From NCBI GenBank assembly GCA_964016885.1, contig OZ024740.1, forward strand, positions 99,820,001-99,884,000: 64,000 nt of DNA, written 5' to 3'. Under the pieces are notes generated by a model, which did no database searches, was not told where the DNA came from, and was given only the letters and a program-made list of their open reading frames with translations. This DNA comes from Eledone cirrhosa (Eukaryota). Of this stretch, positions 20,464-43,369 are shown in pieces (positions within the stretch are counted from its first letter, which is position 1; the number at the start of each line of letters is the position of its first letter). Made by a program: the position numbers and the translations under genes.

Positions 20464-22853
20464 AATAAATACTTGCACCGACGGTGAAACTATGATTGTG
20501 TAAACTAATCAAGCCTAAAATACTCTAGTAGAATATGACAACTTATATTTTCTCAAAATGCGAATATCTTTATTATTATTAAATACGTTTTAAAATATAC
20601 TATTTTCATTCAAAATACTTTTTTGGTACATTGTTTTGTATCTGAGAGATACATGTTATTTATGGGAGTTAATAGCATTTTATTTAACAAGATTATATCG
20701 CTTCTATTGTACTGTAAAGATGTGATTAATCACTTTAGCATAATATGAAATTTCACTAATGCGAAATAATCGCAGTTTACTTCGCATATGCTGCATACGT
20801 ATGATGAACAATGATATCATACGAGGCGTTATGGTAAAACAATCTGAATATCATCGAACTTTAAGTCGCAATTCATATGGTAAAACTTTTAAGTAGCGTT
20901 TATATTTATCAAGTTTGTACTGTAGCAATACGTACATAAACACACCTACATATATGTATATTTATATATATATATGTGTGTGTATGCATATATAAATAAA
21001 TATATATATGCATATATACGTATATATATATATATATATATATATATATATACCTATTCATAAATATACATATTCATATATATATATATATATATGCGTA
21101 TATATGTGTAAGTCAGTATGTGTGTGTGTGTGTGTGTGTAACCTTTTGGAACGTGAGTAGATTTGTTGATGTAATGCCAGCGATAAGGTCATTAATTGCA
21201 CCTCTCACAAAACAAAGCAAAGCAAAATAAACAGGTGTGTGTGTGATGGGGGGGGGGGGGGATAAGATAAAAAACCATAGCACAGAGAACTGAGCTAAAT
21301 AATTTAAAAGACAAAAGAGCGCAACAAGATAAAGTAATATATTTTTTTGAAAAATACTCTGTGTAGAAAGAAACCATTTACAGAAAATCATTTCTTCCTT
21401 CCGCACTCATTTCACAATGTCACGTTTTGTGTGATTATGTATAAAAAGAAGGCTGATAGTATATAGTTCAGACTATCACATTTGGCAACTAGATACACAC
21501 ACACACACACACACACGCATATATATATATATGCGTGTGTGTGTGTGTATTATTCAAAGAAGTCAGTTTATTTGTGTGTGTGCGTGCGTGTTATTCAAAA
21601 AAGCGTAAATAAAATGGCTTTCAGGTGAGTTAGTGATGTAGATATAATATTAAATATGAAAGTAGAATGATCCTCTCTGTTTACACACTCACACACATAC
21701 TTGCACACAAACACACACACACACACACACATACATATATATATATATATATATATATATATATATATATATATATATACATACACACACACACATCCAA
21801 CTATATATATATATATATATATATATATTAGCACAATATTCTAAACAAGAAAGGAAGGGAACCACAGTTGAATATAGTAAAGAAGATATATATTTATCTT
21901 CAAATTAATTTACTTTAACAAATTAAGTTCTTATATTTTGCGATTTATTTAAAATATGGTTATTTTCTATCTGAAGTGCTTCCTCATATATTTAGCGGGT
22001 GGTAATGCATTTGTCAATAATGTGTTTATTTTTTGATGAAGTGGTATGTTGAAATGAAGTGATTGGTGGTTGAGTAAATGAAGTGTGTATATTCCTGTGA
22101 ATCGGGAGTTATAGCTGTGATACATTCCATGGTTGGTGGAACCAGTAGTTCAAGATGCTTGTTGAAGTTGATTCAACGGCCTGATATGACAATTGGTTTG
22201 AATACAGACAACTGTTATCCTGCGCTTGTAGTCACTTTTTATTTCCGTAAACGTGTCTCTCTATAACAATTACCTGTCAGTAAAGGTGTAGTGAAACAAT
22301 AGCTGTGCTGGAGCCGTGTCATATAGTAGTAATTGCGCCTGTCGTAGTTAAGCAATCACTTGGAAGAAAATTACAAATGAAAAAAATAAACCACTAAATT
22401 AATTTCTTTTTATTTGAAGGCATGATTTACGACGAAATCATTTGGTGAATAGGAAAACAATGGAAACAAAGTTTGAAGGAATTCAAAGTATGCTTTTGAT
22501 AAAATGGTAATGTGTGATGTTAGTTCGTTGTTAATTGTGTGAGAAATTAATTGAAATTGTCAGTGAAATAAATTTCATTGATGTGGGTAAAGCTGGCTGT
22601 GGAAGTAAGTGATTGTGTCTGTGGATGTGTCAGTGTTTGAGTGAGTGTAGCCCCAGATTTCGACATTATATAAGTTGAAGTTACCTATGAGATAAATAAT
22701 CTAGAGCTTAGCGCCACACACCCTAATTCTTTAGATTATATATTTATTCTATCATTAGTTTTTATTCGATAACACTAAATCATATACATTCTATATATAT
22801 ACACACACACACACACACACACATATATATATATATATATATATATATATAGG

Positions 22854-22949
22854 ACCCCGACGGCTGAGCTCAAGCCGTTTCGACGGCTAATTCTGGACTA
22901 AATGAACATTTTTATCCTGGTATATGAATAGCCGAGCTTCTCAGGGGGT
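22854..22949 (-). ncRNA. Type I hammerhead-like motif (inverted-arm copy)
   Basis: ACCCC-CTGAGAA-stem II (CGGCTA/TAGCCG)-GAAA-stem III CGGCT..AGCCG-TC-GGGGT. Stem I is perfect; the core has a C3/A8 mismatch. Confidence 0.7.
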
Positions 22950-24120
22950 AATTCCATATATGGTAAAAGTGATTGTCACAAGGATTGGTCAAAAGTTTGT
23001 TGTTGAGACACATAATTCTATCATGGCAATTTGTGGGAGGAAGGGGTAGCTGAACCTGCCAGTAGAAGAAAGAGGGAGAGGTAGTGGAGGAAACCCAGTC
23101 GTGCGTTGATAGTGCCAACTACAGCAGGGCAGGAGATCAAGCAAGTATACTAGGGAGGGGGAGGGGAAGAAGTCGAAACAATAAGTAAATCAATATGGAG
23201 TAAATATATAGAAGAATACCAAGAATGTTAAAAATATTTAAAAAAGAAAAAAACAATAGCTGGTTACTATTCCCTAATGACAGTCATCAAGTCTCTCACT
23301 GGTACTGCTAAACTATAGAAAAGTTTACTAGGTGGGACGGAATTGTAATGAGACCATTTTAAGAGTTAGTAGTAATCAACCGTGTATATCTTACGGTGAC
23401 AGGTCAACAAGTGGGGGGCCAAAATACTTAAAGAAACTACCACGAAATAATAATTCAGAGTCCTGAAACTAATACAAAATAATTGGTTCTACCCTAGGCA
23501 CAACGCCAGCAACCACCCAGTGCAAAAAATAAACTAATACGGAATAATAATTCAGAATCCCGAAAATGAATACTAATACTATCTCTAAGTGTGCCGCTAC
23601 GATACAAAAATTCTAGTGCAAACTACATAAATGCTCGTACGAAGTATATGAACAATTTGATACGGAAAATTAATTCAGAATCCCCTCCCCCAAATAAAAA
23701 AATATATATACTGATATACGAGAAATTAAAGCAGAGATACCACTAAGAAATGTAGAAAGCACGGAAATGGGGCAGCCATCGGATAAGAAAGCAAGTATCT
23801 GGGGTCTATCAAATCTGCTATAAAAAGCGGAGTCGGCCAATTCTATCATAGAATAGGGGATAGGGGTGGAGGTACTGAGGCGACAAAGGACCGAGGGGCT
23901 GCCTCGTGTGGGCGAGAAAGTGAAAAGGACGACGACAAAGAAGGAGGACTGGGGTGGAAGGACTAGGAAGGAATAGGGGGAAGAAGGAAATTTAGAGGAA
24001 ACGATAAAAAGATAAAAAAGAAGATCTTACGTCTACCTTTGCAAGCAGTGTTTACCTATTACAAAGTCGACAAGTGGGGTGTTACAGCCCTTGTCATAGG
24101 TGTCATTATGGGGTTTGAGG

Positions 24121-24543
24121 ACGGACACCTCCAACAAAGCTTATATAGGATTAACCGCATGTGACTTCAAGACCCGGCTATACCAACACAGATATACTTT
24201 CCGAAACCCGGCCCGGCGTCACGCCAACACACTTTCGGGCCACATCTGTGACCTCAAAGATAACAATATTACCAATGATCTCACTTGGAGCTTACTGTCC
24301 AGAGCCAACTCTTACACGAGAGGACGGCGTCCGTGCAATTTATGCTCGGAGGAAACTTTACAAATACTGTTTTCGACGGACCAACTCCTAAACAAGAAAG
24401 ACGAACTGGTAACTGCATGCAAACACAGATTGCATAGGACTTACCTCGCCCTCAAACCCCATAATGACCCGGAGGGGGTAGACAAGGGCTGTAACACTCC
24501 ACTTGCCGACTTTGTAATGGGTAACCCCTGCTTGCAAAGGTAG
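24121..24543 (+). pseudogene. Truncated PLE GIY-YIG endonuclease C-terminus
   Basis: AYIGLTACDFKTRLYQHRYTF..LSGHI..WSLL..CNLCSEE..LLNKKDELVTACKH. The N-terminal GIY half is missing. Confidence 0.88.
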
Positions 24544-42260: not shown

Positions 42261-42809
42261 GTACGAACAGTACGCGGATAATTTACGTCTTGACGTGGTA
42301 GCTAAGTATATTTTATGTTTATACCATTACTTATTTGTATAGGTAAGTATACCTTACCCGTATGTTTTGTGAAGGTACGTATATTTGGTTGTATTTGTTA
42401 TAAGTGTATATATTATATTATATATACTGGTACATGTGTATATGGTTATGTGTATATGTGTATTTTGTGTTTGTGAGTGTATACGTGGTTGCACGTATGT
42501 AAGGTGTGTATATGTGTACTTTGTGTTTTGGTTGACGTACGTTTAGTGAACATATGTGTATTTACCTGTAGGTATGTGTGTGCGTGCGTTATATACGTAT
42601 TTATGTGTGTATATTTATATACGTTTATATAATTATATGTATATACACAAACATATATCTTTTGTTATGTGTATTTGGCGTATACGTTCGTATGTGTGCG
42701 GGTACAGGTGTCACGCGGGTTTATGTGTACGTGCTTGTATATGCATACCATGGCGCGTGTTTTCGCGTATGCATGTGTATGTACGTTGGATACGTGTATG
42801 TATATATAT

Positions 42810-42906
42810 AATTGTTTCTACTTTAGGCACAAGGCCAGCAATTACTCAGTACATTACTGGTACTTTATTTTATCGATCCCTTAAGGATGAAAGGCAAAGT
42901 TAACCT
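42810..42906 (-). mobile_element. Family A SINE 3' half, nested in the PLE 3' region
   Basis: Matches 4121-4219. Confidence 0.8.
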
Positions 42907-43369
42907 GTATATATATAATGATTGTTGATTTCAAAACCTCTGTCTTTTACGTCTACTAATTTATTTACATTATTCTTAACTCTGAAGCCGAGAATCATTC
43001 GGTTTCCTAAATAGAATATTAGTCTACGACTTCATTTATACCATATACGTGTTTTTGTCTTTGCGTGTAATTGTCCTCCCCGTTCCACATAATGACGTAT
43101 TATCTTCGCATTTTTCCGTTCATTGCCAGGGAACGTCTTCACGAACCAAAGTATCGTCTTCCTGTTTTCCTTCGGTTGCAACGTTTTTCGAAACATGTAC
43201 TTCTGCTTTCACAGATACATTTTTTTTAGTTTCAGAAGATCCCGTTAAGGGTGAAAGCAGCAATTGTTTGCTTAAACTTTAATCTCTTATTTTAATAGAT
43301 ATATATATATATATATATATATTTGTGAAAAAGAACAAAGGAACAATTATGACATTACAACAAGTTTAT

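Follow-up and report, generated by a model that had tools for sequence, protein, structure and literature searches.

According to the available part of Craig et al. 2021 (PMC8557442), Penelope-like elements (PLEs) of the Hydra clade, which are C-terminal EN+ elements, insert into (TA)n, carry a hammerhead ribozyme, and have, besides a tail at one end, an inverted copy truncated on its 5' side. That text assigns the tail to EN resolution, gives neither a pairing rule nor a 5' stop, and names the formation of PLE inverted repeats and of the one-sided tail as an open question. For PAc, a Poseidon element of Anolis, the accessible sections of Frangieh et al. 2024 (PMC11167929) report that both strands are cleaved and extended in vitro and that reverse transcription starts at two internal sites downstream of the hammerhead, which bound the tail at the pLTR-ORF junction. 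Targets are AT rich, ribozyme cleavage is dispensable, and later integration steps were left unvalidated; the same sections do not link double extension to inverted copies and do not describe one-of-each pairing or tiny hairpins. The excerpts at hand on Penelope elements of Adineta and Drosophila (PMC3846280; Schostak et al. 2008, PMC2377424) describe head-to-head inverted pLTRs, an optional tail on one arm, and an internal Inr-type promoter in the pLTR, all with counterparts in the insertions reported here, and explain the inverted pLTRs by self-priming on an antisense template.

The window analyzed here, a 64,000-nucleotide stretch of Eledone cirrhosa DNA, contains four insertions in which an initial annotation had recognized a shared hairpin layout and three families. 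The four hairpins are genuine, and we assigned them to three Hydra-clade-like Penelope families, A, B, and C. PLE insertions here are usually head-to-head hairpins in TA repeats, with arms begun at two different fixed points, and these asymmetric hairpins likely arise when both cut DNA strands prime copying of the element RNA near the RNA start. The layout of inverted copy and tail, (TA)n targeting, hammerheads, and two internal reverse transcription starts are already published. A literature search on PLEs did not find the rule of one proximal and one distal start per hairpin, or the 5' stop, in print; an earlier double-priming proposal may still exist in the Penelope papers of 2002 to 2006 (Pyatkov 2002/2004, Evgen'ev and Arkhipova 2005, and Arkhipova 2006).

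Family A has a single 717-aa ORF, found in tandem arrays and starting at an ATG at +92, with YRDD and AYIGLT motifs read by eye; on these motifs, it combines an RT with a C-terminal GIY-YIG-type endonuclease, as in other EN+ PLEs. Searches of Pfam and PDB sequences with the RT/EN proteins gave no matches. The copies also show tandem or partial-tandem pLTRs together with an inverted copy and a tail at one end. Features of the Hydra clade (PMC8557442, in its available text) are all present in family A: DKT, a CxCX5C linker, CxxC and CxH, and no CCHH, with RWR replacing RWK. The family C protein, 54% identical to that of family A, has RWR, DKT, and CxCX5C, and the family B protein is 38 to 48% identical to that of family A. 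Insertion into (TA)n was seen at 274 of 311 family A ends (117/127 and 157/184) against a 6.5% background, so the enrichment expected by the initial annotation is borne out. Unlike Hydra clade elements, described in the same text as generally shorter than 3 kb with tails of 30 to 40 nt, units here measure 3.3 to 3.5 kb (3,542 nt in family A and 3,259 nt in family C), with tails of 79 nt (family A), ~85 nt (family C), and ~154 nt. Motifs and layout thus suggest that families A to C are Hydra-clade-like Penelope elements.

Next, we examined where the arms begin. Copy number is very high (13,364 and 20,156 exact genome matches), and samples were drawn from the first 27 to 50 Mb of one contig by requiring an exact match of 29 to 31 nt; for family A, the first 100 exact matches in position order gave 81 insertions. 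Hairpins made up 72 of these 81, the other 9 lacking a partner arm. The suggestion that hairpins are the rule in this genome therefore holds for family A, but in family C they account for about half of the insertions, which is a lower bound. When both ends of each hairpin were scored in individually retrieved loci, 67 of the 68 family A hairpins with canonical ends paired a proximal start (-79) with a distal start (0; binomial P = 2e-19). In family C, 38 of 39 hairpins were proximal/distal, 1 was proximal/proximal, and none was distal/distal. In family B, where the exact-match pattern is a rare variant (30 copies) and counts rest on 12 resolved partner arms, 11 of the 12 were at one site. This pairing of one proximal and one distal start is the strongest regularity that we observed and is absent from the initial annotation. 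The exceptions are proximal/proximal (element 4 of the window, locus L327, and one pair visible in the genome-wide list of -79 ends) or distal/distal (L184 and L023).

The starts themselves are sharply fixed 3' of the ribozyme, as the annotation had claimed: genome-wide, family A has 8,892 ends at -79, 26 at -90, and 19 at a TAT at -35. A TAT overlap with the target is present at both starts, but since another TAT is used only 19 times, this overlap is not what picks the start, and the TA microhomology noted earlier does not select the site. In having two internal starts that bound the tail, these families resemble PAc, an element of a different clade; in the available text on PAc (PMC11167929), however, the starts show no homology to the cut DNA, and no strand difference was seen in vitro.

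In the window, three of the four copies are atypical of their own families. Element 1 (family A) lies between annotated (TA)n repeats at 22823 to 22851 and 25819 to 25849. Its inverted arm (22850 to 24123, minus strand) begins at the rare site -90 and ends at about -1330. The sense arm (24116 to 25820, plus strand) holds the end of the GIY-YIG domain (24115 to 24477, 92% to the intact 717-aa ORF), the 3' UTR, the hammerhead, and a tail to distal start 0; the two arms overlap at the junction by ~6 to 8 nt, and 22850 to 24123 aligns with 24447 to 25730 at 93.7% identity. On the plus strand, a type I hammerhead homologue (25631 to 25726) with a predicted cut after 25721 contains family position -143 (A at 25677), within what we take to be an initiator-like hexamer (25675 to 25680). 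The usual proximal start, after which other copies enter the TA repeat, is the TAT at 25739 to 25741. The 79-nt "tail" (25742 to 25820, plus strand) lies between the two start sites and natively runs on into the 5' UTR and ORF.

Element 2 (family B) has an inverted arm at 37544 to 37627 (minus strand), with (TA)n at 37483 to 37549 on its left, and a sense arm at 37628 to 38241 (plus strand) that comprises a GIY-YIG fragment, an internal gap of ~240 nt, a hammerhead, and a tail to the distal site, followed by (TC)n(TA)n to 38345. The arms (37544 to 37627 and 37955 to 38039) are 95.3% identical, and the start at 38039 is the lone exception among the resolved family B arms, the other 11 starting at 38076 to 38085. 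Its minimal type I hammerhead (37986 to 38030, plus strand) has a U3:A8 core and a predicted cut after 38023. Element 3, from a family A subfamily, is a typical tiny hairpin: a 37-nt inverted arm from the proximal site (38909 to 38945, minus strand), a junction insert of ~12 nt (38946 to 38957), and a sense arm from -139 to 0 (38958 to 39085, plus strand). Because this arm begins at -139, it retains only the 3' half of the hammerhead, and its cut site was placed by homology; its flanks have only a few TA units. Element 4 (family C) has (TA)n at 40361 to 40398, an inverted arm from the proximal site (40392 to 40645, minus strand), and a sense arm (40643 to 43302, plus strand) with a duplicated 191-nt RT piece, decayed RT and GIY-YIG regions, and a 3' UTR, which stops at the proximal site directly before (TA)n. 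Both ends are thus proximal (-84/-83) and the tail is absent, whereas other family C copies extend ~85 nt further. Its arms, (TA)n included (40371 to 40645 and 43047 to 43322), are 92.8% identical.

The arm lengths given in the annotation (~1270, 83, 37, and 255 bp) agree with these alignments, and its layout of inverted and sense arms is present in all four copies, except that element 4 lacks a tail and element 3 has few flanking TA units. It had also placed the arm ends of elements 1 to 3 at 9, 15, and 20 nt past the predicted cut. These distances are correct (25721/25730; 38023/~38039, which is 12 to 16 nt with a TATA overlap; 38998/39018), but the starts of elements 1 and 2 are atypical, the usual proximal start lying 20 nt (A), ~62 nt (B), or ~28 nt (C) past the cut. 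With three of four window copies atypical, this cluster is partly chance.

We then compared how far the two arms reach. Among 67 family A hairpins, the proximal arm was deeper in 22 and the distal arm in 13, and the arms ended within 5 nt of each other in 32. Since the arm extending further 5' can be either of the two, neither arises by fold-back copying of the other, and two independent cDNA syntheses are needed, in agreement with the double priming proposed in the annotation. Inner ends cluster: 102 of 149 in family A fall within -146 to -130 (mode, -142/-143), and 33 of 100 anchored family C arms stop at -148 to -163 (at about -157), with 3 in the next 36 nt. Family A chimeras jump from about -142/-143 to +63, +92, +114, +217, or +819, and in L249 the jump from -142 to +114 occurs twice within one insertion; some chimeras jump back to -99 to -107 and then stop again at about -140. 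Since arms mostly stop at about -143 and chimeras jump into the beginning of the ORF, priming was likely near the RNA 5' end rather than the 3' end favored by the annotation, and the start sites natively precede the ORF. The stop at -143 (A) or about -157 (C) would then be the RNA 5' end. A splice acceptor at this boundary was rejected, as arms hold bases upstream of the AG and the junctions have no common upstream exon.

The two arms tend to pass this boundary together. In family A, both arms passed it in 4 hairpins, neither in 66, and a single arm in 2 (Fisher P = 2.4e-5). The distal arm never passed alone (0/67 in A and 0/38 in C), and the proximal arm did so in 2 (A) and 9 (C) hairpins. 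A possible breach of this order is L008, from a tail-selected set, with a long distal arm and a proximal arm ending at -140 to -153. In family C, 9 of 38 distal arms stop at -66 to -94, near the proximal start, and 1 stops at -100 to -145.

In a descriptor scan, element 2 and the intact unit of family A each gave a hammerhead, and elements 1, 3, and 4 gave none. The intact family A subfamily that fits the descriptor has a U3:A8 pair, a known hammerhead variant (PMC4209133); in element 1, C3.A8 is mismatched and stem II is disturbed. In family C, a hammerhead-like motif of noncanonical core was read by eye in element 4 (43228 to 43278, plus strand), with an A at core position 4; the arm boundary of family C coincides with the first base of this motif, the A at position 43228. 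An Rfam scan of the window returned 76 matches without a hammerhead, yielding only microsatellite-driven miRNA matches, and minimum-energy folds of three hammerheads did not form the fold and were no better than shuffles (z, -0.15 to -0.89). Seven cDNA segments begin at the predicted cut (-98/-99; Poisson P = 5e-5 against local background), and the templates of family A seem mostly to start within the hammerhead; the claim that templates must have been uncleaved at a 3' ribozyme is not supported. A junction test for an RNA 3' end at the cut gave 2 matches, with L348 as the sole direct -99 jump, versus 8 in a control window (mostly -104 to -107); with 1 of 8 jumps onto the cut site, there was no enrichment. 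In long arms and tandem arrays, the sequence runs without a break through the entire ribozyme, for which read-through RNA, a circle, or strand transfer could account.

Given these data, we favor, with a probability of roughly 0.72, a mechanism in which two internal sites close to the RNA 5' end serve as start points and each of the endonuclease-cut strands primes a separate cDNA at one of them, giving proximal/distal hairpins in (TA)n. The element endonuclease would cut both strands of the target, and each 3' end would prime at the proximal or the distal fixed site. Synthesis would run off the RNA 5' end, so that the majority of events end as tiny hairpins of a strong-stop type. For long arms and tandem arrays to form, the template would have to extend beyond the stop, through 5'-to-3' transfer, read-through RNA, or a circular RNA. 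Short inverted microhomologies or untemplated bases would serve to join the two cDNA 3' ends, with the gaps then filled in. Retroviral strong-stop DNA likewise begins near the RNA 5' end and runs off, with tRNA priming and RNase H. In L1 twin priming, both target strands also prime and the cDNAs are joined by microhomology, but nonoverlapping parts are copied from the poly(A) end with variable second sites, unlike the overlapping arms and two fixed sites seen here. The least certain part, which we only slightly favor, is that both primers use a single RNA molecule, the proximal cDNA being made before the distal cDNA, which then either displaces it or stalls. Tentatively, and at a little under even odds, such ordered double priming on one RNA may be obligatory in normal PLE integration, with run-off producing thousands of tiny hairpins and transfer or circularization producing long copies, pLTRs, and tandems. 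If true, a single mechanism would explain the tail, the inverted pLTR, and the tandems, unlike LINE priming and the published self-priming model. Asymmetric double priming would be a testable answer to the origin of PLE inverted ends: this genome offers thousands of young insertion products, intact 717-aa copies, and base-precise start and stop sites, which yield direct predictions, both for mapping RNA 5' ends and for the in vitro assay that already exists.

An unlikely but serious alternative is that the two primings use separate RNAs, held by a protein dimer whose asymmetry ties first- and second-strand priming to different sites. A dimer is the predicted form of PAc (PMC11167929, in its accessible part), and pairing and overlapping arms would need no strand displacement. 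Alone, however, this arrangement leaves unexplained the joint passing of the 5' boundary and why the distal arm never passed it alone in 105 hairpins; further points against it are the family C distal arms stopping close to the proximal start and L249, whose double jump suggests that one RNA can be recopied. The version first proposed, in which both strands use TA microhomologies to prime close to the 3' end of an RNA whose 3' ribozyme had not cleaved, is improbable. Seamless crossing of the ribozyme by long arms and arrays speaks for it, as does the family C boundary at the first base of the ribozyme-like motif, which even tiny arms cross, and, were transcripts to read through tandem copies, it could hold for the long class. 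Opposed to it are the family A stop, the chimeras that continue into the ORF start, the segments begun at the cut, and the scant use of other TAT sites.

In the published proposals of an antisense template (Arkhipova et al. 2013; PMC3846280) and EN-mediated resolution (Craig et al. 2021; PMC8557442), as given in their available text, a cDNA or antisense template folds back on itself to be copied, and the tail is what remains after trimming of one end by the endonuclease. Some junctions do lie at internal inverted repeats (for example, -118/-118), the -79 site overlaps ATT, a motif cleaved by PAc (PMC11167929, accessible sections), and own-arm pairs share 35% of minority variants versus 7.7% in other pairs (28 hairpins; permutation P = 2e-4), a sharing that also counts in favor of double priming, although one master copy or gene conversion could be its source. 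A copied arm cannot exceed its template, but in 22 of 67 hairpins the arm lacking the tail goes deeper by over 5 nt, and it does so by kilobases in L013, L032, and L341; furthermore, both outer ends meet (TA)n at sites fixed to a single base. Fold-back, including the self-priming invoked for Adineta and Drosophila, is therefore contradicted for copies with a deeper tail-less arm, might apply at most to the 32 of 67 hairpins whose arms are nearly equal, and is very improbable overall. Double priming near the RNA 5' end also implies that aborted retrotransposition may be the source of many short "MITE-like" hairpins in such genomes. We consider it barely credible that the tiny hairpins instead arose by DNA amplification of a MITE-like unit or that assembly artifacts produced the arms. 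There are thousands of similar short inverted-repeat copies at TA sites, and the central junction of element 1 was not bridged in four sequencing runs, possibly of other individuals. However, no two of the 23 tiny junctions examined are alike, and several contain inserts that are untemplated or of poly-A/T; the two ends of a hairpin are asymmetric; arms within a hairpin diverge by 2.9% on average and by 6% in element 1; and family C hairpin joints, such as that from 40465 to 43228, recur in contigs of other public runs.

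Self-comparison of the window confirmed four head-to-head inverted repeats with TA-rich flanks, with inverted arms of 1,274, 84, 37, and about 255 bp in elements 1 to 4 (22850-25820, 37544-38241, 38909-39085, and 40392-43302). Elements 1 and 3 belong to family A, element 2 to family B, and element 4 to family C. Each family has two fixed arm start sites, proximal and distal, and the tail between them is carried by one arm only; element 4 has no tail. Positions are numbered relative to each family's distal end (family A 0 is window 25820). A family C fragment at 46281-46494 (minus strand) runs from the proximal site and has no partner arm. 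In this 3.0-Gb genome, an intact family A unit was recovered from tandem arrays outside the window; it is 3,542 nt long, and its 717-amino-acid ORF starts at +92. Its RWR, DKT, CxCX5C, CxxC, and CxH motifs match the description of the Hydra clade, and its protein identity is 54% to family C and 38 to 48% to family B. Because Pfam and PDB searches with the element proteins returned no matches, the assignment of the families as Hydra-clade-like Penelope elements rests on motifs. A type I hammerhead is present in the intact family A unit and in family B; its core is the U3:A8 variant that Cervera and De la Pena describe (PMC4209133). Two family A subfamilies, both spread, differ in having the paired U3:A8 core or a C3.A8 mismatch (compare window 25636-25642 with locus L278); the C3.A8 core is predicted to be inactive.

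The initial annotation proposed that hairpins may be the rule and suggested tabulating the inverted-arm fraction per family, which bore this out for family A. For a tail-independent sample, a motif common to both arm types was matched exactly at 13,364 sites, and the first 100 of these resolved into 81 insertions, of which 72 are hairpins and 9 lack a partner. Of these hairpins, 67 paired a proximal (-79) with a distal (0) start, 1 was distal/distal, none was proximal/proximal, and 4 were odd; four of the 67 end at -81 to -84, and one of those four has only 79% identity to the reference and is possibly a separate insertion. The first 100 of 20,156 family C matches gave 38 pairs that join a proximal site (-83 or -46) to the distal site (0), one proximal/proximal pair, and no distal/distal pair; the remaining partners had odd or unresolved ends. 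By hand count, about half of ~85 family C insertions have a partner arm; this is a minimum, since chaining breaks down in the low-complexity 3' UTR. For family B (30 loci, 1.5-kb flanks), 12 partner arms could be resolved, and 11 of them begin at the equivalent of window 38076-38085. Another family A set was selected by the tail: 40 of 3,081 candidates were scored, and of 39 of these copies (L001 nearly duplicates L002), 32 had an adjoining inverted segment, with its outer end exactly at -79 in 24 and within -68 to -84 in 28; the remaining ends were at -105 (one), 0 (one), or internal (two). The samples cover the beginning of a single contig and include copies with exact motif matches only. 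The rule of one proximal plus one distal start is new and strongly supported.

Priming had been placed near the RNA 3' end, a position that the arm stops do not support. Of 149 family A inner ends, 102 lie at -146 to -130 (mode, -142/-143), and only 14 go beyond -160. Position -143 is the A of an initiator-like hexamer. Among 100 anchored family C arms, 33 terminate between -148 and -163 and 3 within the following 36 nt, and the arm-boundary joint is also present in contigs of public runs. Several of 30 read-through loci run to about -140, jump to +63, +92, +114, +217, or +819, and run again to -140; L249 makes the +114 jump twice. The stop and the jumps to the ORF start imply a template that holds the start sites and then the ORF start, likely ending at about -143, the likely RNA 5' end of family A, near which the start sites would lie. 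Templates had also been thought necessarily uncleaved at the 3' ribozyme, but seven segments begin at the predicted cut, -98/-99 (Poisson p = 5e-5), so some templates appear to have been cut 5' of the priming sites. A test of family A junctions for an RNA 3' end at that cut was negative.

Long arms and seamless arrays need a template continuing past the boundary, which transfer, circular RNA (proposed in PMC4209133), or read-through might supply. Seamless family A arrays reach about five units, and three were seen to end in a hairpin. These head-to-tail arrays (L279-L286) hold 2.4 to 5 intact-length units; an inverted arm ends three, in two of which the 0/-79 pairing is visible. At L277-L278 (G000:C1:91.47-91.49 Mb), a family A array of ~4.5 units follows a tandem repeat in which a 55-nt segment of the element's own ORF (-1927 to -1870) is present in at least 56 near-identical copies; the RT may have re-copied it iteratively, in a telomerase-like manner, or a minisatellite may have grown there later.

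Could one arm have been copied from the other? Self-priming (PMC3846280) or trimming of a single fold-back product would make it so. In 22 of 67 hairpins, the arm without the tail reaches more than 5 nt deeper than its tailed partner, in 13 it falls short of the partner, and in 32 the two depths agree to within 5 nt; in L013, L032, and L341, the tail-less arm is deeper by 1 to 2.5 kb. Where the tail-less arm is the deeper one, neither arm can be a copy of the other, which contradicts both explanations for those copies. At the hairpin junctions, the arms overlap by 0 to 4 nt or enclose a short insert, in some cases poly-A/T; no two of the 23 printed junctions are alike. Family A arms passed the boundary together in 4 hairpins, neither passed in 66, and one did in 2 (p = 2.4e-5). 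Passage by the distal arm alone occurred in 0/67 (A) and 0/38 (C) hairpins, and passage by the proximal arm alone in 2 (A) and 9 (C). Of 29 proximal arms in the tail-selected family A set, 28 extend beyond -160 (L008 is ambiguous). Minority variants are common to an insertion's own arms in 35% of cases versus 7.7% between insertions, although such sharing could also arise from a single master copy or through gene conversion. Joint passage, arm order, and variant sharing favor, without proof, one RNA copied twice in order. Double priming at the 5' end is the likely mechanism: both target-strand ends would prime cDNA near the RNA 5' end.

The claim that arms start at a TA microhomology just past the ribozyme held in part. 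TAT is common to the target and both family A start sites (sequence beyond 0 is known from 319 read-through copies), and (TA)3 follows arm ends in 117/127 and 157/184 cases, versus 6.5% at random. However, exact family A ends number 8,892 at -79, 26 at -90 (element 1's site), and 19 at the TAT of -35; start-site choice is specific despite TAT overlap elsewhere, and by these counts three of the four window copies are atypical. Family-typical proximal starts lie 20 nt (A), about 62 nt (B), and about 28 nt (C) past the predicted cut. The reported window distances of 9, 15, and 20 nt are correct; element 3 lacks the ribozyme 5' half, and element 1's core is mismatched.

The element class and architecture are known: PMC8557442, PMC4209133, PMC3846280, PMC2377424, and PMC8969392 already describe the layout, (TA)n bias, and hammerheads. 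Frangieh et al. (PMC11167929) report that both strands are cleaved and extended, that two internal starts bound the tail, and that ribozyme cleavage is dispensable. The accessible parts of 10.64898/2026.07.22.740005 and 10.64898/2026.09.17.752431 contain nothing on mechanism. One-of-each pairing, a 5' run-off class, and double priming behind inverted pLTRs are unstated in the literature found, a partial set with key older papers and bioRxiv supplements outside it. The hairpins are real; an assembly artefact is unlikely given mean arm divergence of 2.9%, fixed and asymmetric ends, and joints that recur in other public runs, even though element 1's central junction was not bridged in four public runs, possibly from other individuals.

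The window holds other repeats. A Gypsy-like RT fragment (35397-36870, RVT_1 match) ends at an unrelated hairpin with ~87-bp arms (36831-37045); the hairpin arm looks similar to a LINE endonuclease region, which carries on at 37046. Around a (TA)n run, inverted repeats are nested in a MITE-like arrangement (30570-31309), with 61-bp arms (30570/31309) and a perfect 240-bp palindrome (30868-31107). A non-LTR retrotransposon encoding AP endonuclease and RT occupies 47855-61442 as three diverged tandem copies (70 to 77%) with (TATC)n between them and a 787-aa ORF (52011-54374). A dispersed SINE-like repeat occurs at 4110-4311, 11039-11242, 32198-32431, 39507-39661, 42801-42906, 47290-47487, and 63415-63548; element 4 contains one copy, and a 45-nt piece of the family A 3' UTR (25049-25096) is related to it.
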